Sequence record: PQ850628.1
Reading direction: 5' to 3' (one strand)
Length of the DNA stretch: 64,000 nt
Source: Escherichia phage StefiGeyer_Bas88
Each line of letters starts with the position of its first letter. The first letter of the stretch is position 1. The notes under the pieces are model-generated. The model was given only the letters and a program-made list of their open reading frames with translations. It ran no database searches and had not been told where the DNA came from. This document shows positions 30,643 through 58,906 of this stretch, in pieces. Both the position numbers and the translations under genes were made by a program.

Positions 30643-31485
30643 TTACCAAGTTTTATCTAACCATGACCATTCAAAGAGGTCACCTTCAGCTTGTCCGACG
30701 AAGAGCAATCGAGCATTTTCTAACATCTTAGCTTCTGCTTCTTCCTCGAACCTCTTATAGTATTCCATTCGTATAATATGATAAAGAGTCCACTTATCGA
30801 ATACCTTCTCAATAAGTTTGATAGCAGCTTTGCTACCAATACCCTTACGACGCATAACTAAGTTACCGCCCCACATCATTTCAACTTTCTCACCACATCC
30901 GGGGATGTTGTCTGTACTGTCCCCAATCAACATCTGATAGAAGAAGTTCTGCCATGCTACTTCCTCTGGTACATAATGAGGGGGTACTTCTTTCTGTCGT
31001 TCACCACAAGCCCAGCGATAATGCCATCCGGGAGTGATTAACAAATCCTTATCACGAGTACAGATGATTGTGTTCTTTTCTATACGCTGTCGTTCAGCGA
31101 GTGCATCATCTGCTTCTCTGCCAAACACTTCAACATACTGGTAATGTTCTTTGATATAATCACTAACGTTCTGCCAGTGATGTGGCCTTTCTCCCGGAGG
31201 TCGGTTAGCTTTATAACCTTGCTGCTTGGCAACATCGAAGCGGAAGTTTCCACCTTCGCTGAAATAAAAGATTGTTCTTTCACAACCAGCTCTTGAGATG
31301 ATTACATCAATCTTATGTTGGAGACGTTCAATCAAGAATCCATAATCAACTGGAACACGACCTGTGTCTAGGAAAGGATGCTCTTGTGTAAGAGCACCAA
31401 CCTCATACCGTAGAACATCTGCATCCACAATTGCTACTTCAGGATAGATTACATCAGACATAGAGACCTCTCCGTGTCCCTTCAA
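30643..31485 (-). CDS. 5'-3' exonuclease / flap endonuclease
   Basis: Motifs IVDADVL, GREADDALA, TRDKDL and H3TH-like LIGDSTDNIPG typical of Pol I 5'-exo / T4 RNase H family. Confidence 0.75.
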   Translation of the reverse strand: MKGHGEVSMSDVIYPEVAIVDADVLRYEVGALTQEHPFLDTGRVPVDYGFLIERLQHKIDVIISRAGCERTIFYFSEGGNFRFDVAKQQGYKANRPPGERPHHWQNVSDYIKEHYQYVEVFGREADDALAERQRIEKNTIICTRDKDLLITPGWHYRWACGERQKEVPPHYVPEEVAWQNFFYQMLIGDSTDNIPGCGEKVEMMWGGNLVMRRKGIGSKAAIKLIEKVFDKWTLYHIIRMEYYKRFEEEAEAKMLENARLLFVGQAEGDLFEWSWLDKTW

Positions 31486-32050
31486 TAATCCACTCCAAAT
31501 CCTCCACTGCCTCTTCTACAGAACGGTCATTAAAGAGGAGGTAGGTTGGTAGGTTTGTTCCTTCAATATAAGAACGGGAGTCCCCTTCAAAGGAGCATCC
31601 ATCTCGGAGAATCTGAACTACTCGAACATGGAAACGTTTTTCCAGTTCTTCAACTTCTGCTTTAAACCCACCATCAGAGAATACAATAACATCATTCTGT
31701 GTTGGGATGCGTTGTTGAATACTGCTAACAGCAAGTTTACCCATGCAGGTATCACCAAACATTGGTTTCAGGTAGTTCTCACTAGTCGCAATCATTAAAT
31801 CTCGAACTGTCTTACCGCCCCATTCAGGACGGCTATATTCTTTCCACTCACGGTCGTTGTATAGCTCCATGAACTCATAAAGAGGAAGTCCTAATGCAGC
31901 AGCAGCCACTCGATACATAGGCTCCTTAAAAGCCTTTACATGCGGTCTAAACTCAGTGTTACCGACGGTCTTCTCTAACCAAGCATTAGCGATTGTATCT
32001 TTACCACAACCCGGTGGTCCATTCAGAATTACTACTAATGGTTTACTCAT
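31454..32050 (-). CDS. P-loop nucleotide kinase (dNMP kinase-like)
   Basis: Walker A GPPGCGKDT at N-terminus, 198 aa. Confidence 0.55.
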   Translation of the reverse strand: MSKPLVVILNGPPGCGKDTIANAWLEKTVGNTEFRPHVKAFKEPMYRVAAAALGLPLYEFMELYNDREWKEYSRPEWGGKTVRDLMIATSENYLKPMFGDTCMGKLAVSSIQQRIPTQNDVIVFSDGGFKAEVEELEKRFHVRVVQILRDGCSFEGDSRSYIEGTNLPTYLLFNDRSVEEAVEDLEWIIEGTRRGLYV

Positions 32051-42610: not shown

Positions 42611-42841
42611 TTAGATAACCTTGTGCTTATAGATGTTAGGGTTGTAGTAATGCAACCAGTTTATGTATTGTTTCTGTTCGAGGTAGTGCCTGCAATCATG
42701 ACAAAAAGCATGACCCAAACCTGTTTCCTCATTCAGTTTGAAATTGATAAGAAGCTTCTGCTTTCGACAGAAGCTACATGCTTTAGTGGGCTTCACGTAA
42801 TGCATCCCAAGAGATTGGATATATTTTACGAAGCTCTTCAT
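42611..42841 (-). CDS. Cys/His-rich putative zinc-binding protein
   Basis: CSFCRKQ...HAFCHDCRH; track start 42919 overlaps thyX, so an internal Met (42841 or 42805) is more likely. Confidence 0.35.
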   Translation of the reverse strand: MKSFVKYIQSLGMHYVKPTKACSFCRKQKLLINFKLNEETGLGHAFCHDCRHYLEQKQYINWLHYYNPNIYKHKVI

Positions 42842-43433
42842 CAATTGTTGATGCGAACACTCGTACTTCGTACTGAGCATGGTCTGACAGTCGCTGACGA
42901 CACAACTCTGACCAACCATATAGAGAACCAGTCCATACCCACTCAGTGATCATACCCTGAGGTAATACGAATCGAGCTTGTTCTGGAGCAATGAACTTAA
43001 TCAATTCATCGTACGACTCAAGAGCTGTTTCATATGCTCGGTTAATCAGAACTAGTGCAGAGTTTTGTGCTCCTGTGGTGAGGAGATTCCCTGCACCTGC
43101 ATGGAGGTCCGAAGGTCTTTCAAAAATCTCTTTAGGGATGAAGAGTTCAACTGCTCCATCTTTATACCGCCGGGACATTTCGTTCCACGAGAATCCAACT
43201 TGATGCTTGCCCAACTGTCTCGCAATTGCGATTGGCGCTTTGCATCGGAAGCTAATTGTCGGATGACGGAATGGTGTGACATGCTTTTCTCTGGCAAGGA
43301 ACTTGATAAGGCGTTCATCTCGTTCATTTAACTCTCCTTCACGAGTAACCCCAAAGGAAACTCGAGCTGCATTAACAACAGATTTATCAGAACCCATTGC
43401 TTCGATTAGTGTTGCTTGTAATTGTTCATTCAT
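42783..43433 (-). CDS. thyX: flavin-dependent thymidylate synthase ThyX-like
   Basis: DKSVVNAARVSFGV, KAPIAIARQ and LSDHAQYEV resemble ThyX; the canonical RHR-x7-S signature reads KHQVGFSWNEMS. Confidence 0.7.
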   Translation of the reverse strand: MNEQLQATLIEAMGSDKSVVNAARVSFGVTREGELNERDERLIKFLAREKHVTPFRHPTISFRCKAPIAIARQLGKHQVGFSWNEMSRRYKDGAVELFIPKEIFERPSDLHAGAGNLLTTGAQNSALVLINRAYETALESYDELIKFIAPEQARFVLPQGMITEWVWTGSLYGWSELCRQRLSDHAQYEVRVFASTIDEELRKIYPISWDALREAH

Positions 43434-43447
43434 CCTTGAACTCTTCC

Positions 43448-43663
43448 TTAATAATGAATCTTTTTATAAATCATGTTGCTTCCACTTTCTGTTTCAATCC
43501 CTTTCTGAATTGTAATCTTAGAAGCGCCAGTGTTAGCAATTTTTAAAGCTCGCTTAAAGCGGCGAGCCTCTCTCCGTGTTGTATATGAGGAGAAACTAGG
43601 GATTGTGCTATCAAAATTAAACCACTTAACTGCCCAAAAAGTAATCCAAGGTTTCTTTTCCAT
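43448..43663 (-). CDS. small protein, K(V/I)HY-tail paralog family member
   Basis: 71 aa; shares W.V.(V/I)(K/R)W, TR.EAR..KK and C-terminal K(I/V)HY with 45528-45734 and 45734-45946. Confidence 0.4.
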   Translation of the reverse strand: MEKKPWITFWAVKWFNFDSTIPSFSSYTTRREARRFKRALKIANTGASKITIQKGIETESGSNMIYKKIHY

Positions 43664-43664
43664 A

Positions 43665-43940
43665 TTAAATACCTTTCAGAGCCGTGTCTAAAAATGCACG
43701 GAGATTAGATTCAGTTTGCATACCTGATAAGCTGTAATGAGCACCACTGTTCTTATCAGGGATGACAAAGGCTGGGATACTGCGAACACCATATTCAATG
43801 GCTCGCTCTCGACCATCACCTTCAGAGATATTTACTTCTTCAACTTCTACACTGTAGTCAGCCACAACCTTCTTAAACACAGGAGCCATAGCTGCACACG
43901 GAGCACATGAATTACTATAAAACTTAATTACTTTACTCAT
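43665..43940 (-). CDS. thioredoxin/glutaredoxin-like protein
   Basis: ATG at 43940; CxxC active site in KFYSNSCAPCAAMAPVF. Confidence 0.6.
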   Translation of the reverse strand: MSKVIKFYSNSCAPCAAMAPVFKKVVADYSVEVEEVNISEGDGRERAIEYGVRSIPAFVIPDKNSGAHYSLSGMQTESNLRAFLDTALKGI

Positions 43941-44568: not shown

Positions 44569-45135
44569 TTAGTAAGACACGTCACCACTAGAGTGGGACA
44601 TGTTGCTCTTGACGAAGTAACAGAACTTGCCAAGACCTTCATTAATTTCTTGAAGCATACTCTGGTCTACTGGATAGGTGCACAAGTCTGAATCAAACTC
44701 GTCCATCTTTTCAATGATACACATCAGAGTCATGCACATGTCGGAAAGCATACCGTCCATGTCGAGATCAGCACTACCTTCTCTGAACCAAGCACAACTA
44801 AGATAGCTACTAGCTGTTGCATCCACTTTGATACAGTGATAACGCATTCGCTCAGCTACTCGGTCTCCTGTTTCACGAGCATAGTCTTCTAATTCATCGA
44901 ACATACCATGAACACCTTGGAAACCAGCTCCAGAGACGTTCCAGTGGTAATTCTTTGCTTTGATGTGTAGAAGCTCAAGGTTAGCCTGCACACCGCATAG
45001 GATGTGCTCTAGACTGTTACCGCTGATCAGTTTATTCATTCCCTCAAGACGAGAGATAGAGGAGTCAGTTGTAGAGAATGGGTTACTAGAACCCACTCGT
45101 GTTAGTTCAGGTAAGTCGAAGACATTATTATGCAT
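44569..45135 (-). CDS. Dps/ferritin-like protein
   Basis: ANLELLHIKAKNYHWNVSGAGFQGVHGMFDELEDYARETGDRVAERM matches the Dps pattern (N.HWNV.G..F...H..F.E.Y). Confidence 0.5.
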   Translation of the reverse strand: MHNNVFDLPELTRVGSSNPFSTTDSSISRLEGMNKLISGNSLEHILCGVQANLELLHIKAKNYHWNVSGAGFQGVHGMFDELEDYARETGDRVAERMRYHCIKVDATASSYLSCAWFREGSADLDMDGMLSDMCMTLMCIIEKMDEFDSDLCTYPVDQSMLQEINEGLGKFCYFVKSNMSHSSGDVSY

Positions 45136-45527: not shown

Positions 45528-45734
45528 CTAGTAATGAACCTTGCTAGTCAAGGATCCTGCACTGTTATTGTCACTTTGAAACCAACGATGAATCTCTACT
45601 TTTTCAGCGAGACCTAAAGCTTTTGTAGCTTTCTTAGCAAGACGAGCTTCTTGTCGAGTGTCGAATAATTTAAGACAATCACCACCAAGGTCTTTGTTAG
45701 CCCATTTAACGCGAACTGCCCATAATTTAGTCAT
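45528..45734 (-). CDS. small protein, K(V/I)HY-tail paralog family member
   Basis: 68 aa; WAVRVKW...TRQEARLAKKA...SKVHY. Confidence 0.4.
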   Translation of the reverse strand: MTKLWAVRVKWANKDLGGDCLKLFDTRQEARLAKKATKALGLAEKVEIHRWFQSDNNSAGSLTSKVHY

Positions 45735-45946
45735 TAGTAATGTACCTTTCCACTGATATAGAAACGACCTGATTTAAAGTCTTGAGCTTTGTGAATAGTG
45801 ACCTTATCAATTGTACTTTCACAGCTTAATAAGAATTTCTTATGAGCGCGAGCCTCTTGACGAGTATTCCTGATGCCCATTGATTCCGTACCACTACTCC
45901 AGCGGATACGAACGACCCAACGTCTTTTCATTGTTCCAAACTCCAT
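45734..45946 (-). CDS. small protein, K(V/I)HY-tail paralog family member
   Basis: 70 aa; WVVRIRW...TRQEARAHKKF...GKVHY. Confidence 0.4.
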   Translation of the reverse strand: MEFGTMKRRWVVRIRWSSGTESMGIRNTRQEARAHKKFLLSCESTIDKVTIHKAQDFKSGRFYISGKVHY

Positions 45947-46146
45947 TATCTGTCAACCGATTCAGGGACAAACTGCATTACACATACCTGATTACGAGGG
46001 AGATTTATTTCACAAGCAGCTTTTCTATCAGCAACCTTTGCTGATGAGTTAGGGCCTATTTGAGCCATCATTATTCCCATAGCAAACATGCCGATGATTA
46101 TGCCAATTGATAGAGATGCTACGGTTTCTTGTTTCATCTTAATCAC
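45946..46146 (-). CDS. small membrane protein
   Basis: 66 aa with hydrophobic segment SLSIGIIIGMFAMGIMMA. Confidence 0.35.
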   Translation of the reverse strand: MIKMKQETVASLSIGIIIGMFAMGIMMAQIGPNSSAKVADRKAACEINLPRNQVCVMQFVPESVDR

Positions 46147-46676
46147 ACCCCTTTAGATGCAACTACACTATTGCTACCATTGTAGCGACCCTTCACTGCA
46201 TATGAATCGTCGCCAGCGTGAGAGTGTTCAAACATAACCATCTGACCAACACGCATTCCAGCACGAACTCGTAAGCTGTGATTGTGGGTAACATTATGGA
46301 ACTCAAAGGTCAGCTTACTGTTGTTAAACCCTGCATCAGCCCAACCAGCATGGAGATGGTTTAAACCACAACGAGCCATTGAGGAGCGGAGTACAAACAG
46401 ACTTGAAATATTATCTGGAAGGTTAAACTCTTCCATTGAGTGAGCTAAGAAGAACTGTCCCGGAGTGATAACGATACCATCTTCAGGGATTTTTACTTCT
46501 TTCCACTTGAGGTTTTCTTTAGCATCAATGTCAACAATACCATCAGCCTGCTCTTCAACAAGGATAGTATCACCAATACGGATATCCACACTAGCAGCGT
46601 TAACATACTTATGCTCCGCATCTAAAAAGCCATTATCAATAACGCTGTGTAATTCTTGAGAACCTAAAAGACTCAT
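46143..46676 (-). CDS. dcd: dCTP deaminase
   Basis: dUTPase-fold motifs ASVDIRIGD, SSMARCGL, AGWADAGF; 177 aa. Confidence 0.75.
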   Translation of the reverse strand: MSLLGSQELHSVIDNGFLDAEHKYVNAASVDIRIGDTILVEEQADGIVDIDAKENLKWKEVKIPEDGIVITPGQFFLAHSMEEFNLPDNISSLFVLRSSMARCGLNHLHAGWADAGFNNSKLTFEFHNVTHNHSLRVRAGMRVGQMVMFEHSHAGDDSYAVKGRYNGSNSVVASKGV

Positions 46677-48109
46677 GAGTTTCTGTTTCCTTGTACAGAT
46701 GATGCCAAATTGTTAATCATATTACGAGCTGTTTCACGAGTTAGTGTAACACCTGCTAAGTTGTTATGAAGTTCACCAGAGAGTTCACGAGCAGTAGCCC
46801 GAAGCTCTTCACCAAGTGAAGTGTTAGAGTGAGCCAAACCATTACGACGACCAACAGGTCGAGGAGTTTCGTTAGCGTCATTAGCTAAAGATGCAAAACC
46901 AATACGAGCAGCTTCACGAGCGGCTATAGCTGCTACCCGATCTTCCGTAGGGGTTGGCAAATCACCAACCCCTACACGTTCAATATCACTAGCACGTAGA
47001 CCCTGAGTAACAGATCTTACTGTTTCCCATGAACGACGAGAGCGCTGCAAATCATCCATTGATGGAGAAGAAACAGGACGAGCAGTTCCTCCTGAGACAT
47101 GCCATGTATGGTTATGCATTCCAGAAGATCGTGCACTACCAAAACTACCGGTGAAAGTATCACGAGGTGCCATTGTACTAGGGGCTGCGAATCTTGCCTG
47201 TTGCCAAGAGTCACGTCTGTCAGTTCCCGGAGTCCAAGGCTGCGTAATTGCTTCAACACCAATAGTGGTTAACTCACTAGACCAATCTGTCTGTAGGTTA
47301 ACTTCTTCATCCAGATAGATACGACCCGCTTCCTGAGGAATATTTAATACAGTTTCCATCATCTTCAAGGTGTAGTGGCGACGTTGATTCTGATACAAGT
47401 TTACACCAGCCATAGGCCCAACTAAATCACTGATCAGATGAACTTCTGGTTCACCAAAAGCTCCCATTGCAAGGTGCATATACTCAGTAGAACTGCTGTA
47501 AACTGCAACTGTTGCTTCAGGCCACTTTTTGTGGACATACTTCATGTCACGACTTGTCACCACAGGGATATCATTAGTATATGCCATTGCAAACATACCT
47601 TCGTTCGACACATACATATCATCGAGAGTCATAAACCCTTGACAGATCATAGGGAAGCGACCGCTCAGAGTATCCATATCCAGAGGAAGGTTAATCATCA
47701 TCTGAATCTTCACTTCATCAATCTCAATTTCCAGAATCTCTTGGAAAGTGAAAAGTGCGTCAGCATAAGTTGTCCCACTAACAGGCTGGACTAAACGAGA
47801 TGTAACTTGAAGTCCCTTACTCTCTGTCCAAGACAAGAAGTTGTCAAGGAACAGTGCAGCATTACCCACGTTAGCAGGGCTGTTTTCCTGACGAGTGTTC
47901 CAACGAAACCCTCCTTGAACTAGGAAGATATCAACATCATTCGGAGTTCGGTTCTGGAAGAACGTATCACGGATAGCACCACCTGCAATAACAGGATAAA
48001 TACCATCAGGGACTACGTTATCTCTGATCAAATTACGAATCAGGTCAAGCCCTACGCTGAGGGCTTCTCCTTCTTGAAGGTTCAATTCAGACAATGGAAT
48101 CTTAATCAT
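46673..48109 (-). CDS. nucleotidyltransferase (CCA-adding enzyme / poly(A) polymerase-like head domain) with low-complexity C-terminal region
   Basis: AGGAIRDTFFQNRTPNDVDIFLV matches the class II tRNA nucleotidyltransferase GGAVRD...DxD motif; C-terminal 200 aa Ser/Arg/Thr-rich. Confidence 0.5.
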   Translation of the reverse strand: MIKIPLSELNLQEGEALSVGLDLIRNLIRDNVVPDGIYPVIAGGAIRDTFFQNRTPNDVDIFLVQGGFRWNTRQENSPANVGNAALFLDNFLSWTESKGLQVTSRLVQPVSGTTYADALFTFQEILEIEIDEVKIQMMINLPLDMDTLSGRFPMICQGFMTLDDMYVSNEGMFAMAYTNDIPVVTSRDMKYVHKKWPEATVAVYSSSTEYMHLAMGAFGEPEVHLISDLVGPMAGVNLYQNQRRHYTLKMMETVLNIPQEAGRIYLDEEVNLQTDWSSELTTIGVEAITQPWTPGTDRRDSWQQARFAAPSTMAPRDTFTGSFGSARSSGMHNHTWHVSGGTARPVSSPSMDDLQRSRRSWETVRSVTQGLRASDIERVGVGDLPTPTEDRVAAIAAREAARIGFASLANDANETPRPVGRRNGLAHSNTSLGEELRATARELSGELHNNLAGVTLTRETARNMINNLASSVQGNRNS

Positions 48110-50480: not shown

Positions 50481-50687
50481 TCAATAAAACGAACGTATTT
50501 CTTCCCACACATCATCTTGAAGATTTTTAAAACCCTGTAAAGCTGATTGGGTTCTCATGATAAAGTCTTCAGAATGTTTATTGCGGTCAAGCATACTGAC
50601 AAACTTGTCATAGCGGTTAATCTTCCACCGTAACTTTAAGTAGTCAGACTCGAGCTTTCTCAGCTTCTGTCGCTCAGTTACTGTCAT
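50481..50687 (-). CDS. hypothetical protein
   Basis: Start taken as internal ATG at 50687 (track start 50786 overlaps the upstream gene by about 110 nt). Confidence 0.35.
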   Translation of the reverse strand: MTVTERQKLRKLESDYLKLRWKINRYDKFVSMLDRNKHSEDFIMRTQSALQGFKNLQDDVWEEIRSFY

Positions 50688-51105
50688 CCTGATCACCTGC
50701 CAGATACGCTGTCCAGTCGCCAGATTCAACCAAAACATCTTGTTCTTCGTCGATATGATAAATCCATGCTTCCACAGTCTCGCCATTATCCAGCACCACT
50801 GGAATCAGTGTACGATTGTAGAAAGTGTATGGATTGTCTTTACCACGATAACCTTCCAGACCGTCATACGGACCTTCCAGACCAGCTTGGGTTGTTTCAA
50901 AGACTTCTACACGAACAGGCTTGCCATTGCTGTCATGCACCAGAGATACACTTGGGAAGTATGCTGTGCAATACTGATACAGGTTACAGTTGTTCACTGT
51001 CCAACCTTCACCAATAGACACACCACCTGCACGAGCATTGATAGCGTGGTTGTGTTGACCTTTACGAAGAGAACCATACGTTGCAACTAATACTTTATCA
51101 GACAT
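50674..51105 (-). CDS. gamma-glutamyl cyclotransferase-like (AIG2/GGACT fold) protein
   Basis: N-terminal YGSL motif (VLVATYGSLRKG), about 143 aa, downstream acidic residues consistent with GGCT-like fold. Confidence 0.55.
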   Translation of the reverse strand: MSDKVLVATYGSLRKGQHNHAINARAGGVSIGEGWTVNNCNLYQYCTAYFPSVSLVHDSNGKPVRVEVFETTQAGLEGPYDGLEGYRGKDNPYTFYNRTLIPVVLDNGETVEAWIYHIDEEQDVLVESGDWTAYLAGDQDDSN

Positions 51106-51140
51106 TATATTACCTTTTGTGTTTCAGTTAAATTCGAACT

Positions 51141-51162
51141 AGCCTCCTCTTTCGAAGAGGCT
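51141..51162 (-). other. stable RNA hairpin with GNRA tetraloop, no U-tract
   Basis: Minus-strand RNA AGCCUCUUC-GAAA-GAGGAGGCU (9-bp stem, one G-U) in the intergenic gap between 51171-51356 and the GGCT-like gene. Confidence 0.35.
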
Positions 51163-51170
51163 AAAGCAAA

Positions 51171-51356
51171 TTATTCTACTTCGAAGTGTTTGATCACACC
51201 AGTCAATACATCAGATTGGAACGTACCTACTAACTCTGCGCCTCGGAAGAAATTGACATTTGTTCCAAGTGTTTCAAAGCGTTCTGCTTGAATGTCCAGA
51301 GATTGAATATTCCCTTCTGAGTTTACTGTACGAAACATGATTGTGTATTTATTCAC
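51171..51356 (-). CDS. hypothetical protein
   Basis: 61-aa ORF, ATGA coupling with the upstream gene. Confidence 0.35.
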   Translation of the reverse strand: MNKYTIMFRTVNSEGNIQSLDIQAERFETLGTNVNFFRGAELVGTFQSDVLTGVIKHFEVE

Positions 51357-51595
51357 AGAGTTGTTACTCCCTTATCTTCTTGTGCAATTGCGATGATACG
51401 CTCAACACATTCCATTGAATATTTATCACCTCGTTTAAGGAAGGTGACAATTGCAGAGAACTGATTACCAATCATTCTCTTGTTTGTGATTCCAAACTCT
51501 TCACAGAGTTGGTTAATAGCTTTACGAGAACCAACAATCAGAGGTTCTTTTTGTTCGGTCATTCCACGACTGATCAAATCTTCGATAGACAACAT
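51353..51595 (-). CDS. hypothetical protein
   Basis: 80-aa ORF. Confidence 0.4.
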   Translation of the reverse strand: MLSIEDLISRGMTEQKEPLIVGSRKAINQLCEEFGITNKRMIGNQFSAIVTFLKRGDKYSMECVERIIAIAQEDKGVTTL

Positions 51596-51615
51596 TACAA
51601 ATTCCTTTTGTTTAA

Positions 51616-52863
51616 TTACAGAGTTACTGCTACTTCACTACCTTCAACAGTTACAGACTCTAACTTACGAGGGTTGTGGACTTGTTGCGGATGAACCGGA
51701 ACGTTCCAGCCACTGCGGTAGAAGTTACGACCATCGCAGAACAGAATGACATTGGCAGACATTGCATTAGGTTGCAGGTTGTTATGAACATGACGAATAT
51801 CTGCAATCCAGTAACCACGAGACAACACATAACCAGTAGGTGCATTACGGATTGTCTGAGTATTCATCTGACCTTCCAGTTGCATTTCTTCAGGAACTAC
51901 ATCCACTGAATCAACCGGCTGTGCGACTTGGCCTTCCAGTGCGAAGTTTTCATCATCAGCACTTTCACTGTCAGCAACCAATTCACCATCTCCATCTTCA
52001 ATTGGAGCTTCAACAGGTGTTGCATAAACCACTTTATACTGAGGAGTATAGAGAGGGTTTTGAGCTTTAACAAACTCAAGGATATTGTGACGGTAGATAT
52101 CCAGAGTTGTGCCAGTTAGGCCCGGTGCTGTATTAACTTCCAGTACCCATGCTTCTTGACCTTTGGTGATGATATCAACTGCACCGAAATCTAGACCCAT
52201 TGATTCAACAGCTTTCACTGCGTTGATCAGAGAGGCATCGTTCGGAACGTCTGTGAAGGAACTTGAGTAAACCCAACCAGTGTGATGGTTACGAACATCT
52301 TCACGATAGTTAGGGTCTTCACGATAACCGTTACGACGAATCTTTTTCTGAACATAGGTGATAGCACCTTTGAACACATGGACACGCCATTCACGACGTG
52401 GGCCTAGAATACCTTTGGTGTACAGTTCAGCTTGACCAACTGAATCACGAGGCTCTACAACAATGATACCTGAACCAGAGTGACCAGTCAGTTCATGACG
52501 TTCATACACAATGTTGCCAGAGTTTGACCACTCCTGAGCAGTTGATTGAACATCTGTATACTCAACAGTTTTAACACCTGCTTGGTCCATTACACTGAAA
52601 GCGCGACGTTTGTTCGCTGCCATATGTAAGGCTGCGGTACGGTTAAGAACAGTTGCAGAACCAAAGAAGGATTCAGGATAGCGACGGTTCCCGTAGTTCA
52701 CAACCACATCACCCTCACGAGAACGCCAGCGACTGTTCTCTGAAAGAAGACCCATTACGTTAGCGTTGATACGTTCATCACGGATAGTATCGTTAATGGC
52801 AGTTACCAGAGCGTTAACAGAATCAGAAGGGCCATACGGAAGAACACGGATACGAGTAGTCAT
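51616..52863 (-). CDS. ATP-grasp family ligase with C-terminal extension
   Basis: RimK/glutathione-synthetase-like core incl. AWVLEVNTAPGL; about 150-aa acidic C-terminal extension. Confidence 0.6.
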   Translation of the reverse strand: MTTRIRVLPYGPSDSVNALVTAINDTIRDERINANVMGLLSENSRWRSREGDVVVNYGNRRYPESFFGSATVLNRTAALHMAANKRRAFSVMDQAGVKTVEYTDVQSTAQEWSNSGNIVYERHELTGHSGSGIIVVEPRDSVGQAELYTKGILGPRREWRVHVFKGAITYVQKKIRRNGYREDPNYREDVRNHHTGWVYSSSFTDVPNDASLINAVKAVESMGLDFGAVDIITKGQEAWVLEVNTAPGLTGTTLDIYRHNILEFVKAQNPLYTPQYKVVYATPVEAPIEDGDGELVADSESADDENFALEGQVAQPVDSVDVVPEEMQLEGQMNTQTIRNAPTGYVLSRGYWIADIRHVHNNLQPNAMSANVILFCDGRNFYRSGWNVPVHPQQVHNPRKLESVTVEGSEVAVTL

Positions 52864-52865
52864 TT

Positions 52866-53096
52866 TTAGATACCTTTTAGTTTAAGAATTTCGTTACGAC
52901 AGGATTGAATTTTAACTTCGATTTCCCAATACTTGGCGAACATCTCGTCTTCTTGGTCATCGCTTGGTGAATCAATTAGGTTAAAAGCAAACGGATACAG
53001 CTTTCGCTGCTCCGTTACCAGTTGTTGAAGTCGGAGTTGTTGATACTCCAGCATTGTCAGGTGAGGCTTAGCTCCCTTGCTTGACATGAGGCTCAA
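52866..53096 (-). CDS. hypothetical protein
   Basis: 76-aa ORF within cassette. Confidence 0.35.
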   Translation of the reverse strand: MSLMSSKGAKPHLTMLEYQQLRLQQLVTEQRKLYPFAFNLIDSPSDDQEDEMFAKYWEIEVKIQSCRNEILKLKGI

Positions 53097-53301
53097 CTTT
53101 AATCCCCTTCAATTTCACATAGTCAGCCAACACGTTGTTGATAACGGTTGGGAAAGGGATTTCAACTGGAGAGTTAACCAGTCCCCCAATACCTTCTTGC
53201 ATCCATTTCTGAATAGCTCGAAGGTTATCACATCCTGTGCTTGTCATTGGGATACGTCGAGTGGTTACAACGTTATCCAACATCAATTTACGAACTTCCA
53301 T
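53068..53301 (-). CDS. hypothetical protein
   Basis: 77-aa ORF within cassette. Confidence 0.35.
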   Translation of the reverse strand: MEVRKLMLDNVVTTRRIPMTSTGCDNLRAIQKWMQEGIGGLVNSPVEIPFPTVINNVLADYVKLKGIKVEPHVKQGS

Positions 53302-53312
53302 AACTTCACCTC

Positions 53313-55346
53313 TTAATGTTTACCTTTACAGTAATCTGAATTACAGATCACCCTGTTTTCTTTGTTTAGTGAGCAAATTTCTGCATCACGCCACGGAATT
53401 TGTTTATAACAGACCGCACAAAACCCAATTGAAGTCCAGAGGGCTTTTGTGAACTCAGCTGTTCGTTGTCCGTCGTAACTGACAACTGTTTTTCGGAGAG
53501 TTGTTTGCTTTTCTGGAAATGTTTCCGCTTTCTCAGCGGGCACCTCCTTTGGGGCATTCTTTGGACCATAAACAGAGATGGCATAGGTATCGCCACCACG
53601 TTTTTCCAAATAAGAGTTTGGAACATCAGACAGCTCAATATCACCAGAACGTTTAGCTGAACTAGCCATTACAGTCATTCGGCTAAGCATACGCTGATCA
53701 ACACGAACTGCTACTTCAGGGCGACGTGGGTTAGTTGTGTCGACTGCTTTAGTCCAAATGTAACCTTCAGACAATGTAGTGTTAGTCACTTTGTCTTTGA
53801 TTTCTTTGGCACAGACATAACAAATATCTTCACCACGAAGTTTACTCATTTCGTTATCAAACTCGAAATCAGTTTTAACATTGCCACATACAGCACAGAC
53901 ACCTAAAGGAATGTCTTCATCTTCTTCAGACGGTTTGGACAACGCTTCGAAACAGGCCGGATGCCAATATGCTTGGTAAGCGAACACAGCTTTCTTAGCA
54001 TCTTTCCATTCAATGTGCTTGTCACAACCGCCACAATCACCATGAGAATGTGATTCCCAGAACTTACGGGTGACTTCCACACCATTCTTAGTGATGAAGG
54101 AGTCTTCTAAATCAAAAGGGATATCATCATCAAAATCAGCGGTGGTGCTTTGAGGCTCCTTATCGGTAGCATCAACAAACAGCCCTGAAGTGAGTACGAG
54201 GCGAATCATACTGTCCACTTCGGAGATACAAGCAACCGTCCCGCGATACACCACCTTTGGGTTTTCGAGAGCCTTCAAGTATTCACTCTTGGCTACATTA
54301 TGAACATCACCCTCAACATACTCTTGAGCAGCATCATCATAAATATAACCAACCATCTTACCACGGTCAGTGTTGTTGTAAGCGTGGAACTCGTGAGGGA
54401 TGATATCCACACGACCGTCACGACGATACGGAAGACCACGATCGGCAGCCAGTTTATTCTGATCTTCAATCGCTTTACGACGACGAATGTCTCCGCTTGT
54501 CACGCCGGGCTTGTCGTCTTTGTTTCCGTAAATGTCGCTTGTGCTGCTGCTTGACTTGTTTGTCTGTTGGTTCTGATATAGAGAGGAGTTCGAGTAATAG
54601 CCGCCCCAGCGACTCGTTACCGTAAAAACCGGAAGCTTGTGCTCCACCTCTTGAGTCAGAGTCATACGGTTGCCAGACAAATCAAAGATGTATTCAGTTC
54701 CCACTTTACACTCAAAGTGATCATTGATACGGTTCTTGTGTGACTTGGAACGATTAAGAATCCACATCAACATATCTTCTTCAGAAGCACCAAACCAATC
54801 CAGACCACAACGGGCCAGATGGAAAGGACGTTCATCGTTACGAATGATATGCAGAGTATTGTCTTTGGCGTCATGCCAGATTAAAGTGAACGCACCATCC
54901 AACTTCTGGATAGTCTCTGCTGCGCCGATGGTGTTGATTGAATGACAGATGTTTTCGCTATCAACTTCGAAATTCTTATGATCTGGTAACAGTTCCTGAT
55001 CTAACAGTGTACCATTATGAACCAGAGTAATGTCACCATGAGAGAATGGGTGAGCATTTCGAGCATTGACAGCACCACGTGTGGCATGTCGGCTATGACC
55101 AACAATCCACGATGGAGGAACTACATAGTTCGTAAGCCCCTTAGTAAGATTCGTGTACCCTGTCTGGAGCATGAAGGCATAGGAAGGAAGTGCTTCTTTA
55201 TAAGAAAATACTTTTTCATCACCTTTACGCTGACCGAACACACCAGTTGAGTGCTGACCACGGAAGACTCCAGCATACAGAAGCTGGTTGAATACGTCTA
55301 AGTCTGTGGAGGTCATGTTGCCCCCAGCTAATACGATACCACAAAT
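53313..55346 (-). CDS. class-II (Ntn-type) glutamine amidotransferase with C-terminal zinc-ribbon region; probable non-AUG start
   Basis: HSRHATRGAVNARNAHPF...HNGTL GATase-II motifs; the conserved catalytic N-terminus CGIVLAGGN lies upstream of the first in-frame ATG (55316), reached only via ATT at 55346-55344, itself preceded by AGGTGG; C-terminal Cys clusters CGGC...CAVCGN...CYVC...CAVC...CNSDYC. Confidence 0.65.
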   Translation of the reverse strand: MCGIVLAGGNMTSTDLDVFNQLLYAGVFRGQHSTGVFGQRKGDEKVFSYKEALPSYAFMLQTGYTNLTKGLTNYVVPPSWIVGHSRHATRGAVNARNAHPFSHGDITLVHNGTLLDQELLPDHKNFEVDSENICHSINTIGAAETIQKLDGAFTLIWHDAKDNTLHIIRNDERPFHLARCGLDWFGASEEDMLMWILNRSKSHKNRINDHFECKVGTEYIFDLSGNRMTLTQEVEHKLPVFTVTSRWGGYYSNSSLYQNQQTNKSSSSTSDIYGNKDDKPGVTSGDIRRRKAIEDQNKLAADRGLPYRRDGRVDIIPHEFHAYNNTDRGKMVGYIYDDAAQEYVEGDVHNVAKSEYLKALENPKVVYRGTVACISEVDSMIRLVLTSGLFVDATDKEPQSTTADFDDDIPFDLEDSFITKNGVEVTRKFWESHSHGDCGGCDKHIEWKDAKKAVFAYQAYWHPACFEALSKPSEEDEDIPLGVCAVCGNVKTDFEFDNEMSKLRGEDICYVCAKEIKDKVTNTTLSEGYIWTKAVDTTNPRRPEVAVRVDQRMLSRMTVMASSAKRSGDIELSDVPNSYLEKRGGDTYAISVYGPKNAPKEVPAEKAETFPEKQTTLRKTVVSYDGQRTAEFTKALWTSIGFCAVCYKQIPWRDAEICSLNKENRVICNSDYCKGKH

Positions 55347-55423
55347 TTTCTAATCCACCTGAAGGGTAAACCCTTTCATCTAATTAACCTTTAAATGCGC
55401 CCTTTATCAGAGCGCCCATTGTG

Positions 55424-56524
55424 TTACAGCAGTCGTTCTAATTGCATTTCCAGATGGTCTGGAATGTAATCGGTGATGTTATTATCACTGCTACCTGATT
55501 CACGCATCAGAGCAAACATGTGACGAATTTCACGAACCGTTGCGATTCGAGTGTTTTCAATCTGAGGGGTGTAATAGGTCATGATCTCTTCATAAACAGA
55601 GTTAGCATTACCTCGTACATATCCCAAGAAACCGTAGAAGTCACCCATGTCACGCAAGTTGATAAGGATTTCACCATCAGGTCCAGTCTGCTGTACACGA
55701 ACACGACCAACCAGAGTAACAGAATGTTCACGACAGAACAGAATATCACGAGCCAAACGATAACCGCCAGTCAGGTCATCATCATTAGGTGTGTAGTCCA
55801 GAGGCAGATACTGAATCATAGGAGCGAAGCGTAGCTCATTCAGTTTCTCAACATATGCTTCATTGTCCAAATCTGCATACTCAACAGCTAGTTTCTTGAG
55901 AACCAAGAAGCGGTTGACCAGATTAAGGAGTTGGCTTTTCTTCCACTTTGGCTCTGAGATACGAAATTCAACAGAACCAAACTGAGCCAGAGGTAATAGG
56001 TTAAGGGAGGTGTACTTGTCCCAGCTATTAACAAGAGTATTGAAGAAGGCTTCACCATCTCGGTTGAACGCTGCGGAAGCATTCATTACCTGTGCTTGAA
56101 CAACAGCAAAGGCAGGACAGAAGTTGCTACGATAGCGATGGTATCCAGAACATTTGAACATCATCTTTTCATAGAACGTCCATCCAAGAATTACTTTCTT
56201 CAGGATGTTACTATCAGCGTCACGCATATCCATATGAACGTGAGTAGAGCAGCGCCAAGTCCCTTCAGCTTCAGAGTCTTGTACTGCTTCACTCAGATTG
56301 TTAATAGCACTAAGCAATTCTACACCGTTATAAGGCCGTGCACAAACCATCTCACAGCCATCACGAAGTGAACCATCTTCAGTACAAACCCAAAGGTCTG
56401 CATCAATTTCAGAGGTTCCTTCAACTTCCAGCTCGATGCCAATACCACACTGAAAAGCGATGCTTGGGTGCGGCTCAGCCAGACGAGCATTACGGTATCC
56501 AAAAACTTGTGCTACGGTTGTCAT
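55424..56524 (-). CDS. glutamine-synthetase-like carboxylate-amine ligase (amidoligase)
   Basis: GIGIELEVEG and RCSTHVHMD resemble GCS2/YbdK-type amidoligase motifs. Confidence 0.5.
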   Translation of the reverse strand: MTTVAQVFGYRNARLAEPHPSIAFQCGIGIELEVEGTSEIDADLWVCTEDGSLRDGCEMVCARPYNGVELLSAINNLSEAVQDSEAEGTWRCSTHVHMDMRDADSNILKKVILGWTFYEKMMFKCSGYHRYRSNFCPAFAVVQAQVMNASAAFNRDGEAFFNTLVNSWDKYTSLNLLPLAQFGSVEFRISEPKWKKSQLLNLVNRFLVLKKLAVEYADLDNEAYVEKLNELRFAPMIQYLPLDYTPNDDDLTGGYRLARDILFCREHSVTLVGRVRVQQTGPDGEILINLRDMGDFYGFLGYVRGNANSVYEEIMTYYTPQIENTRIATVREIRHMFALMRESGSSDNNITDYIPDHLEMQLERLL

Positions 56525-57147
56525 AACGTTTCCACCAACTCTACATTATATGATGACAGATCTGAAGAAATATGCTTGAACTTCTCCAGAAGATTTAAAG
56601 ATTGACGACCATTGTCGCCGTAACCAGCAGAAAGATCAACTTGACCTACAAGTGCCCCTTTGTAATAAACTTTACCATCGACAGGGTTGATGTAGATGAA
56701 GCGAGTAACCAGACCTTCGAAGTCAGGATTAAACAGATTATACACCAGCTCTCCCGGAATCGAACGACCCATTGAAGGAGGTGCGCCACGTAATTTGTTC
56801 CCCATCAGACCTTTAGCTCGCTGACGAACAGGGTTGATATGAGTCCAGCTTACCATGTTGTTGCCGTGTTGTAAGTATCCCACATCTGGAGATTCCAGAA
56901 TAAGGCTTTGATCAAACACAGGAATGCCCTGAACAACCTGTCGTTCAAACTGCCCTTCGGCGTTCTTAGACCAGCGTTCAACTTCAAAAGTTAAGGCCAT
57001 TTCTGCTTCGTGAGAGAAGTCATCTTCTCCAAAGCGGTTTGCTTGGTTCACGTTGAGTACATAAAGAGGTAAGTTAATTCCTCGTTCTGCACGTTGGGCA
57101 ATCCATGTTCCGCAATAATAATGCTGAAAATCTCTTAACAGGCTCAC
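56521..57147 (-). CDS. hypothetical protein (cassette member)
   Basis: 208-aa ORF, ATGA coupling. Confidence 0.45.
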   Translation of the reverse strand: MSLLRDFQHYYCGTWIAQRAERGINLPLYVLNVNQANRFGEDDFSHEAEMALTFEVERWSKNAEGQFERQVVQGIPVFDQSLILESPDVGYLQHGNNMVSWTHINPVRQRAKGLMGNKLRGAPPSMGRSIPGELVYNLFNPDFEGLVTRFIYINPVDGKVYYKGALVGQVDLSAGYGDNGRQSLNLLEKFKHISSDLSSYNVELVETL

Positions 57148-57156
57148 GATAACACC

Positions 57157-57963
57157 TTAGATAATCTGGAGTTTAGAGGAGAACTTATCCGCTTCTTTAA
57201 CATCGTTGCTATTGATGATGTTGTGAAGCTTTTCGATAGGCAGACGGGAGTGCAGAGACATGAGAATTTCCATATCACAGCCCTGAATAACCTTATCAAC
57301 TTGATCGTAAACAAACTTACGAGTGGACTGTTCACCAATCCAGAAGTTCGACAGAGAACGGTATTCAATACCATAATCTTTATAACGAATAGCAGATGCC
57401 TTGCCGTAAAGCTCTTTACGACGAGTGTCCTTATCCATAATTACCGCTGGAAGTGACAAGAAGTAATCACACAGAACACCCAGCATCATCTGAGTCTGTC
57501 GAGTTACTTCCAAAGACCCTGCAACACCGAGGTGTACGTGACCGCCAGCAGTACGAAGACCTTTGTCTGTCGCTACCGGAGATGGGTTTTTCTGACCAGT
57601 GAAGGCGTTGAAATCAGGAGTACAGCCAAACACAAAGGCTGATGGATGGAATGATTGCAGCTCTTCAGAAGTGTACACATGAGAACTAATCCCAAGTGCA
57701 GCTTCCATACCACGTTCATTAAGAACTTTGTTGGTCAGATCAATACCACGCTGGATGTTATCATCAAACGCTTCGAACCCTTTCTGTGGGTTAATATCGA
57801 ATTCAGCCAGAACGTTGTCTTCTTGAAGACGAACATCAGGGGCCAGATCAATTTTGTTATCTTTAGAACAGCCCAGCTTACCAGCCACAGAGGTGATAAT
57901 ACCAGAAGCAGTACGAACAAACATTTCAGGGTCAGAACCAATAAGGAAAGCACGCTTAGTCAT
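57157..57963 (-). CDS. second carboxylate-amine ligase-like protein (COOH-NH2 ligase type)
   Basis: ATG at 57963 (overlaps upstream stop); FLIGSDPEMF and GGHVHLGV motifs. Confidence 0.45.
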   Translation of the reverse strand: MTKRAFLIGSDPEMFVRTASGIITSVAGKLGCSKDNKIDLAPDVRLQEDNVLAEFDINPQKGFEAFDDNIQRGIDLTNKVLNERGMEAALGISSHVYTSEELQSFHPSAFVFGCTPDFNAFTGQKNPSPVATDKGLRTAGGHVHLGVAGSLEVTRQTQMMLGVLCDYFLSLPAVIMDKDTRRKELYGKASAIRYKDYGIEYRSLSNFWIGEQSTRKFVYDQVDKVIQGCDMEILMSLHSRLPIEKLHNIINSNDVKEADKFSSKLQII

Positions 57964-58906
57964 TGTAATACTCCACAAGTTCATCAAAAAGGGAAACAAC
58001 ACGGGCACCAGCTTCTTCTGGTGTCATTGAGGAAGGTACTGCTTGCATCAAGCGTTCAATAAAACTGCGAACAGTAATTCTGTCCATACGCTGATCTAAT
58101 ACTTCACGTTTATGGCCTGCACACATTGACCAGAGACGCAACCACTCACTCATACTTTCGTAATAGTCAGGGTCTTGGTCACGACGACGAGCCATACTAC
58201 GAAGAACTCCGTCATTATGGTTTCGTACATAACCATCTCTGTTATCACCAACACCGAACACGTTCTGAACCCATACGTTTTCAGAAAATTCGTCAGTGGT
58301 ACAGACCAGTGGCAAGAATGCAATTGCACTCATTTCGCCAGTAAAATAGGTCGCTGCTGATTCATCATCAGTATCCACATCATGTGAATAATCCCAACGA
58401 CCAAAGAAGTTACGACTTAAACCAGCTAAGCGTAAAGCTAAGCCGATTCGTTGTCGCTTGAGTAACTCTTCCTTGTCTTGAACGCCTTCCTGAAGGAACT
58501 CCATTCCCATAAAATCCCCATCCAGATAACTACGGAGGGTCATTAATCCAGTAAACACCTTGTCTGCTGGGTGGTCTCGAAGGTTCACGGCAACTGAGTT
58601 CACCGAAGTGACAGAGAACATGTTTTTATAGCAAGACATTGAGTTAAAAATGTCTGTTGCTTCAACTAAAGCTCTTTCGATATCTTTAGCTGGTACGCCA
58701 TAAAAATTGTGAGGCCAGAAGTTGATAACTCCAACTTCTGAAGTTCTATCACGAAGGCTTGAGAGATTGATACTGTCGCCATTAATGTCTGTAACAGCAT
58801 ACATATGCTGACAGTTGAAAGTACCAAAACAAGCTCGCCCTCTGAACACTGACTCACCAAAGTTCTCTGATGGTGTTACCGGAGCAGTCGATGCGGAGAT
58901 TGACAT
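57956..58906 (-). CDS. hypothetical protein (cassette member)
   Basis: 316-aa ORF, no recognisable motif. Confidence 0.45.
   Translation of the reverse strand: MSISASTAPVTPSENFGESVFRGRACFGTFNCQHMYAVTDINGDSINLSSLRDRTSEVGVINFWPHNFYGVPAKDIERALVEATDIFNSMSCYKNMFSVTSVNSVAVNLRDHPADKVFTGLMTLRSYLDGDFMGMEFLQEGVQDKEELLKRQRIGLALRLAGLSRNFFGRWDYSHDVDTDDESAATYFTGEMSAIAFLPLVCTTDEFSENVWVQNVFGVGDNRDGYVRNHNDGVLRSMARRRDQDPDYYESMSEWLRLWSMCAGHKREVLDQRMDRITVRSFIERLMQAVPSSMTPEEAGARVVSLFDELVEYYND

Follow-up and report, generated by a model that had tools for sequence, protein, structure and literature searches.

The thyX-like gene of Escherichia phage StefiGeyer_Bas88, found at 42783..43433 on the minus strand, is the phage copy of a widespread and uncharacterised subfamily of the flavin-dependent thymidylate synthase ThyX, and most probably, judging by the conservation of its residues, makes dTMP. 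Positions refer to the window, which is the whole 64,000-nucleotide stretch of sequence record PQ850628.1 that was analysed and which belongs to a phiEco32-like podophage of the subfamily Gordonclarkvirinae. The RHR tripeptide that has served as the hallmark of ThyX is not universal in the family, since a large and coherent subfamily, here named KHx/SRRY, carries the pattern K-H-x...S-R-R-Y instead. Since bacterial housekeeping genes are also part of the very large subfamily that conserves this variant motif, an ordinary dTMP-making enzyme is the most likely reading. The phage protein is accordingly regarded as a probable functional ThyX, converting dUMP to dTMP, from a large and old subfamily whose phosphate-binding site appears to be differently wired.

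The open reading frame starts with ATG and encodes a protein of 216 aa, which matches the Pfam family PF02511 (Thy1) with 147.5 bits against a cut-off of 24.8, its residues 8-206 covering profile positions 1-190 of 191. Its score of 123.2 bits with the NCBIfam equivalog model TIGR02170 exceeds the cut-off of 87.9, and it matches PHROG 85, 'thymidylate synthase', with 208.9 bits. The Pfam span and the TIGR02170 score agree with an earlier reading of the DNA, made from its letters only and referred to here as the sequence-only reading, which had described the protein as a ThyX homologue over its full length. Thy1 was the sole match of this reading frame in the Pfam search, with no similarity to ThyA, and in a sequence search of the PDB all matches with E < 0.01 were ThyX, the one other match (E = 0.65) being an unrelated protein. 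A ThyA-type dUMP or dCMP hydroxymethylase was rejected as the identity of the gene product for this lack of ThyA homology. An AlphaFold2 model of the monomer, built with 35 relatives as input, reached a mean pLDDT of 95.2, and the top 50 Foldseek matches of the model were all ThyX from Thermotoga maritima or Thermus, with TM scores of 0.75-0.83. As modelled, the product is a protein with the ThyX fold. Among 21 distinct ThyX sequences in the PDB, none is closer to the phage protein than those of T. maritima and Thermus, at 32-34% identity, which means that no close relative has a solved structure; nor does any member of the KHx/SRRY subfamily.

The DNA around the gene is 93-94% identical to that of Escherichia phages HC-25922, ECBP2, and IME267, and HC-25922 encodes an identical protein (100%), annotated as 'thymidylate synthase'. 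Within Gordonclarkvirinae, the dN/dS of the gene is 0.10 against ECBP2, 0.16 against KBNP1711, and 0.11 against Ptacy1532; the gene is under purifying selection within this phage subfamily.

The motif that characterizes ThyX is RHRx7S (Myllykallio 2002, as used in PMC2826268). The phage protein contains the segment ARQLGKHQVGFSWNEMSRRY, and in HMMER alignments to the ThyX of T. maritima (1kq4) and Thermus (6j61) its residues K76-H77-Q78, encoded at 43200..43208 (minus strand), fall exactly on R78-H79-R80 of the T. maritima enzyme, whose numbering is marked Tm in what follows. The aligned stretches read RQWFRHRIA-SYNELSGRY in T. maritima and RQLGKHQVGFSWNEMSRRY in the phage. The protein thus departs from the canonical motif: the histidine and the serine are kept and the lysine retains the charge of the first arginine, while the second arginine is lost, and one extra residue before the conserved serine, S87, gives K-H-Q-x8-S in place of R-H-R-x7-S. 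This replacement of RHR by KHQ had been noticed from the letters, with the caveat that an RHR might lie at a shifted position. The alignments confirm the replacement, and no RHR tripeptide occurs anywhere in the 216 aa, so the shifted position was rejected.

The conserved serine opens the stretch S87-R88-R89-Y90, encoded at 43164..43175 (minus strand), with the S87 codon at 43173-43175. Here the serine, the second arginine, and the tyrosine are those of the canonical catalytic loop (Tm S88, R90, and Y91), and R88, which takes the place of Tm G89, is an extra arginine specific to the KHx/SRRY subfamily. Another basic residue is gained at R56, encoded at 43266..43268 (minus strand), which corresponds to Tm E58, where canonical enzymes have an acidic residue.

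Canonical ThyX is a FAD-binding homotetramer in which three subunits contribute to each active site. In the structures of ThyX from Mycobacterium tuberculosis and Helicobacter pylori, the RHR motif forms hydrogen bonds with the AMP phosphate, the ribityl chain, and the FMN phosphate of FAD, and its first arginine additionally contacts the isoalloxazine ring and dUMP. A serine and an arginine of a second subunit (S71 and R190 in M. tuberculosis, equivalent to Tm T55 and R165) bind the same groups of FAD (PMC6514825). The sequence-only reading took the arginines of RHR to bind the phosphate of dUMP. This is right insofar as the first arginine touches dUMP, but what the motif mainly holds are the phosphates and the ribityl chain of FAD (PMC6514825). 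Tm R78, R80, S88, and R90 have also been listed as direct hydrogen-bond partners of dUMP, and residue 89 in the ThyX of the virus PBCV-1 can place its side chain in the pocket of the dUMP phosphate (PMC3498832).

The conservation of these sites was followed in column statistics over 94 representatives of the subfamily and 119 close homologues of the phage protein. The residues that bind and activate dUMP (Tm Q75, E86, S88, R90, Y91, R147, and R174) are all present in the phage enzyme and are invariant or nearly so in both sets; R28, H53, F57, H59, E144, Q180, and E182 are likewise invariant or nearly so in the subfamily. The folate site is kept as well, with phage H51 corresponding to Tm H53 (93/94 representatives) and phage E151 to Tm E144 (94/94). 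The changes are found among the residues by which canonical enzymes hold the phosphates and ribityl chain of FAD: of these residues, the phage keeps Tm T55 and has Lys for R78, Gln for R80, and Tyr for R165. These three FAD-phosphate ligands are changed in the subfamily as a whole, lysine standing for R78, a hydrophobic residue for R165, and a residue that varies for R80. Position Tm78 is Lys in 81/94 representatives and Arg in the remainder, and Tm79 is His in 82/94. Position Tm80 varies freely (Q, K, T, H, V, or E), as would be expected if its role had moved elsewhere.

Basic residues appear at other positions of the same proteins. Tm89, which is Gly, Ala, or Gln in canonical enzymes, is Arg in 91/94 representatives. 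In addition, a basic residue is found at Tm58 or at Tm169 and almost never at both: in 64/94 representatives Arg or Lys is found at Tm169 only, in 17/94 Arg is found at Tm58 only, and the close relatives of the phage enzyme have Arg at Tm58 in 118/119 cases and no Arg at Tm169. Other differences fixed in the subfamily are Tm R25 to Asn, R143 to Pro, L152 to Gln, and V162-N163-A164 to Gly-Ser-Leu. The arginine at Tm89 and the mutual exclusion of Tm58 and Tm169 suggest that phosphate-binding charges may have been relocated with their function kept. In the phage protein, R88 and R56 would compensate for the three lost FAD-phosphate ligands. If the dUMP phosphate and the FAD pyrophosphate are now held by these new arginines, in place of the lost contacts, the chemistry would be unchanged and the reaction would be that of any ThyX, in which dUMP, CH2-THF, and NAD(P)H yield dTMP.

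The variant motif is not restricted to this phage. The pattern KHQxGFSWNExSRRY is found in 119/120 of the nearest homologues, retrieved from a collection of 5.8 billion sequences and ranging from 100% to ~52% identity. When 1.84 billion cluster representatives (50% identity) were scanned exhaustively with HMMER, 6,928 proteins matched at E <= 0.001, and RHR is absent from the best 150 of them, which share 39-59% identity with the phage protein. The tetrapeptide SRRY is present in 120/120 relatives of a spirochaete enzyme of the subfamily. The signature of the subfamily can be written as K-H-x-[VI]-G-x3-[NS]-E-x-S-R-R-Y together with P at Tm143, Q at Tm152, and G-S-L at Tm162-164, and the phage protein carries all of it, in the segments KHQVGFSWNEMSRRY, APEQAR, LPQ, and TGSL.

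Among the phage isolates sampled, the two motifs covary: KHx and SRRY occur together in Gordonclarkvirinae, Chaseviridae (TH28 and PP101), Rheinheimera Barbavirus, Vibrio phage 11895-B1, roseophage CRP-2, an Alcaligenes phage, and the N4-like Klebsiella phage P184 (Schitoviridae). RHR is accompanied by S[G/A/Q]RY in Thermus phage phiLo, PaMx25, S-RIM2, RcMrWorf, and mycobacteriophage Spud. A looser form, K-Y-A with SRRY, is found in Streptomyces phage Wofford, and Lahexavirus has KHQ with S-M-R-Y. In a rough neighbor-joining tree, calculated with no bootstrap, all KHx/SRRY sequences fall into one clade, which contains none of the canonical sequences. Judging by host genera and sampled loci, at least about a third of the ThyX genes of phages would be of this type. 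The KHQ substitution is far beyond chance, and a recent decay of the motif was rejected by its conservation in 119/120 homologues and by the dN/dS of 0.10-0.16. Plain divergence, which the sequence-only reading had kept as a fallback, comes closer to these results than altered chemistry does, but a strictly conserved subfamily signature with a compensating arginine in SRRY is not the outcome of drift.

The subfamily also has cellular members. Bacteria and archaea were scanned with an alignment of 12 sequences as query, each species being represented by one genome; this gave 48 loci encoding relatives, nearly all of them with KHQ...SRRY. Such genes are found in Spirochaetia, Nitrospinota, Poribacteria, and Dehalococcoidia, and several of the loci are not prophage. 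One of them lies in the complete 1.79-Mb Spirochaetia chromosome OZ251568.1, where thyX is flanked on one side by genes for citrate synthase, an aldo-keto reductase, and a short-chain dehydrogenase, and on the other by those for dihydroorotate dehydrogenase (pyrD) and OMP decarboxylase/phosphoribosyltransferase (pyrF/pyrE). This neighborhood of 11 kb is syntenic with that of a second spirochaete, a metagenome-assembled genome (MAG), with protein identities of 49-86% and 66% for ThyX itself. In three Nitrospinota MAGs the gene is located between an AcrB/HlyD efflux pair and IspH/MlaA, in Dehalococcoidia it adjoins a 2-oxoacid dehydrogenase complex, and in Poribacteria it lies among metabolic enzymes. 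Vertical descent in the company of core genes, in one case beside those of pyrimidine biosynthesis, would be expected of a working thymidylate synthase. By its gene context, KHx/SRRY thyX is also a cellular housekeeping gene of bacteria. The sub-clade of the phage itself is phage-only, comprising Gordonclarkvirinae, 7-11-like phages, Lahexavirus, and Chaseviridae, with 42-46% identity to the cellular members. A phage-specific motif tied to DNA modification was rejected in view of the 48 loci from the scan of bacteria and archaea, several of them with housekeeping synteny.

These observations bear directly on the altered substrate or hydroxymethylase-type reaction that had been put forward for the KHQ motif. 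The proposal finds no support, given that the residues for dUMP and folate are invariant and the KHQ/SRRY type is chromosomal in several bacterial phyla. Neither is the motif read as a new base specificity, since the residues that recognize and polarize uracil, where such a change would be expected, are all invariant. For the same reason the methylation of dCMP or UMP instead of dUMP is the least probable of the alternatives considered, and scarcely to be expected. The ThyX paralogue PolB, a UMP methylase with altered sugar specificity, is a precedent for it, and the loop that follows KHQ has one residue more than its canonical counterpart. However, none of the residues in contact with uracil and the deoxyribose phosphate in the solved complexes has been lost, the arginines that polarize the uracil carbonyls should differ in an enzyme specific for cytosine, and the dCTP deaminase of the same genome supplies uracil nucleotides. 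A further alternative is a change in the handling of the flavin. The enzyme would then perform the same dTMP reaction with FMN, with another pose of the ADP moiety of FAD, or with a loosely bound and exchangeable flavin, and would represent a mechanistically distinct subclass of ThyX. The changes do cluster on ligands of the FAD phosphates, ribityl chain, and adenosine (Tm E58, R78, R80, N163, R165, and N169), with the dUMP and folate sites untouched and positions 80 and 165 variable in the subfamily. The new basic residues, R89 being nearly invariant and accompanied by R58 or R169, nevertheless suggest that the phosphate contacts are kept, and K78 and H79 are largely retained, which makes this reading unlikely.

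The other alternatives concern the DNA of the phage. In the BASEL study, Gordonclarkvirinae were described as 'remarkably resistant' to restriction-modification (RM) with no known modification pathway, and DNA containing dU was speculated upon (PMC11990801). The window contains 9 EcoRI and 27 EcoRV sites in its 64 kb; sites are not avoided, and their avoidance was rejected as the cause of the reported resistance. A resistance that has no known pathway, in a genome where the sites are present, leaves room for a DNA modification. In the phage-only sub-clade, the enzyme might transfer the methylene to dUMP and then release 5-hydroxymethyl-dUMP or another C5 derivative in place of dTMP, as the entry to an undescribed modification that is perhaps elaborated by neighboring amidoligase, amidotransferase, and ATP-grasp genes. 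Such chemistry is conceivable because 5-hydroxymethyl-dUMP can be trapped with acid as an intermediate of ThyX catalysis (PMC3498832), and the window does encode an amidoligase and a glutamine-amidotransferase, similar genes being known from metagenomes near those for thymidine hypermodification. This explanation of the resistance is nonetheless very unlikely. The motif is common to bacterial chromosomal housekeeping genes, the residues known to act in methylene transfer or reduction are all unchanged, and the DNA of phiEco32 could be mapped by restriction profiling and sub-cloned (PMC9965538). Moreover, no 5-hmdU DNA kinase or aGPT-Pplase was named among the neighboring reading frames scanned (20 with Pfam and 10 with PHROGs), the sole kinase match being the dNMP kinase. 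The lower still probability given to a catalytically dead protein, which would only bind or sequester dUMP, for example to favor the incorporation of dU as speculated by the BASEL authors, follows from a similar balance. It would account for the loss of three FAD-phosphate ligands, and these phages have been suggested to carry dU in their genomes (PMC11990801), but Tm H53, which stacks on folate, E144, Y91, and R174 need not stay invariant in a mere binding protein, the purifying selection is strong, and the cellular members stand among housekeeping genes. Members of the subfamily also carry inteins at three conserved sites, and inteins are typically located in active centers. The KHQ change by itself is therefore no evidence of modified DNA, and the restriction resistance of Gordonclarkvirinae needs another explanation.

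A functional enzyme that makes dTMP would fit well in the nucleotide metabolism of the phage. Both a dCTP deaminase and a dNMP kinase had been claimed to lie nearby and both are real: the former is encoded at 46143..46676 (minus strand; Pfam DCD, 1.1e-34; TIGR02274, 104.8 bits against a cut-off of 92.8), the latter, a deoxynucleoside monophosphate kinase, at 31454..32050 (minus strand; phrog_139, E = 7.1e-41). Two genes upstream of thyX, a thioredoxin-fold protein is encoded at 43665..43940 (minus strand; Pfam Thioredoxin, 7.5e-13), its start being set at an internal ATG following the annotation of ECBP2. In other phages, thyX of the KHx/SRRY type sits beside genes for ribonucleotide reductase, MazG, and thioredoxin. 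No second thymidylate synthase is annotated in a 32-kb stretch of ECBP2. The pathway would begin with the phage dCTP deaminase (Dcd), which by its family membership should convert dCTP to dUTP, and would continue with the host dUTPase (Dut), giving dUMP. This would be methylated to dTMP by the phage ThyX and phosphorylated onward by the phage dNMP kinase and then by the host Ndk. The GC content of the window is 42.6%, and that of the host, E. coli, is ~51%; a route of this kind would shift the nucleotide pool towards T. It is likely, on gene content, that ThyX, the dCTP deaminase, and the dNMP kinase together supply thymidylate for the phage genome.

The relevance of a subfamily that lacks RHR is modest, and concerns the annotation of ThyX by motif, the design of ThyX inhibitors, which are aimed at the same pocket, and the question of which contacts in the active site are truly indispensable. 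Liu and Yang reportedly described 'distinctive ThyX motifs' in 2004 and may already have covered a non-canonical motif, and novelty is claimed here with caution for that reason. The literature search found no usable description of a ThyX lacking RHR, the accessible papers all giving the motif as RHRx7S, and no published assay of a KHx/SRRY enzyme from a phage or a cell. One evolutionary study discarded the sequences that departed from RHRx7S by more than two dissimilar residues (PMC2826268).

Compared with canonical ThyX, such as T. maritima TM0449, the M. tuberculosis and H. pylori enzymes, or A674R of PBCV-1, the phage protein is homologous over its full length at 32-34% identity. It resembles them in its predicted fold (TM 0.83), in the residues that bind and activate dUMP, in the histidine and glutamate of the folate site, and in the company of nucleotide metabolism genes. 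It differs from them in having KHQx8S where they have RHRx7S, and an arginine after the catalytic serine where they have Gly, Ala, or Gln, as well as in the changes of Tm R165 to Tyr, E58 to Arg, N163 to Ser, R143 to Pro, and L152 to Gln. With the other KHx/SRRY enzymes it shares ARQ-x-x-K-H-x-[VI]-G-x3-[NS]-E-x-S-R-R-Y along with P143, Q152, and G162-S163-L164. Within that subfamily, its sub-clade is set apart by the extra basic residue at Tm58 (R56 in the phage), by Glu, Ser, or Asn at Tm169, and by Gln at Tm173, whereas in the majority of the remaining members, the cellular enzymes among them, Tm58 is a small residue, Tm169 is Arg, and Tm173 is Leu.

The dUMP and dCMP hydroxymethylases of the ThyA family, known from SPO1, T4, and thymidine-hypermodifying phages, are likewise encoded by phages and act on C5 of a pyrimidine deoxynucleotide, but belong to an unrelated fold and family. 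The known dUMP hydroxymethylases that have been cited are all homologues of ThyA, and none has the ThyX fold (PMC3498832). A closer relative is PolB, which methylates UMP in polyoxin biosynthesis and has the ThyX fold and the use of flavin and folate in common with the ThyX family. The phage protein matches PDB entry 4p5a, which we take to be PolB, with E = 5.5e-17, and the ThyX of T. maritima with 4e-26. PolB prefers the ribonucleotide, whereas the phage ThyX bears no sign of a changed ribose recognition and stands in the context of DNA-precursor metabolism.

Inteins occur at three distinct conserved sites in relatives of the thyX product that belong to the KHx/SRRY subfamily, the ThyX group, with phage and bacterial members, that carries K-H-x in place of RHR together with S-R-R-Y (P0121, P0132, P0225, P0265, P0191, P0207, and P0222). 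One site is located between H53+1 and T55 in the numbering of Thermotoga maritima ThyX, another lies within the loop directly after K-H-x-x-G-x (for example, KHQSGF followed by an intein running from CLTGDT to VVHN, and then SWNE), and the last is directly N-terminal to the catalytic serine. Some of these inteins additionally hold HNH or LAGLIDADG endonuclease domains. Since inteins have been described as typically located in active centers, the insertion after K-H-x-x-G-x fits with this loop being functionally important.

Among the bacterial and archaeal genomes scanned, one per species, nearly identical KHQVGLVWNEVSRRY ThyX genes were found on contigs that binning had assigned to widely differing marine lineages: a Prochlorococcus single-cell assembly (L039), a Nitrosopelagicus MAG (L047), and an archaeal MAG (L020). 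Some of the 48 apparently cellular loci are probably phage DNA, either mis-binned or derived from an infecting phage, and evidence for a cellular ThyX was taken only from loci with conserved housekeeping synteny.

The surroundings of thyX in the phage include three paralogous small ORFs of ~70 aa each on the minus strand (43448-43663, 45528-45734, and 45734-45946), which have in common W-x-V-[KR]-W at the start, the motif R-[RQ]-E-A-R, and K-[VI]-H-Y at the C terminus; one of them is directly upstream of thyX. On the other side, a small Cys-rich ORF (MHYVKPTKACSFCRKQK...CHDCRHY..., 42611-42805, minus strand) probably starts at an internal ATG, with an overlap of a few bases with the stop codon of thyX, and its product looks like a zinc-finger protein. 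The minus-strand gene at 44569-45135 encodes a protein of 188 aa in which a Pfam scan finds a ferritin/Dps-like domain (Ferritin, 2.1e-07). This protein is an unusual component for a podophage replication module, and its counterpart in the related Escherichia phage ECBP2 is annotated as 'DNA binding protein'.

Restriction resistance has been reported for the subfamily Gordonclarkvirinae (PMC11990801). The 64-kb window contains 9 EcoRI and 27 EcoRV sites, against ~20 expected for each from base composition, and 137 GATC sites; therefore, site avoidance does not account for this resistance. The authors of the BASEL study proposed a nucleotidyltransferase and dCTP deaminase pair as a possible DNA-modification module (PMC11990801). 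Here, the 478-aa nucleotidyltransferase (46673-48109, minus strand; phrog_12715) gave no match in a Pfam scan. It has a GGAIRD...DVD head resembling that of a CCA-adding enzyme and a long tail rich in Ser, Arg, and Thr, and its gene ends in a stop that overlaps the beginning of the gene for the dCTP deaminase.

A further run of genes extends along the minus strand at 50674-58008, encoding a gamma-glutamyl cyclotransferase-like protein (50674-51105), a RimK-like ATP-grasp enzyme (51616-52863), a class-II glutamine amidotransferase (53313-55316), an Amidoligase_2 protein (55424-56524), and a phiEco32-type COOH-NH2 ligase (57157-58008), with unannotated ORFs interspersed among and beyond them. 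In viral metagenomes, genes for amidoligases and amidotransferases with no assigned role have been described near thymidine hypermodification pathways.
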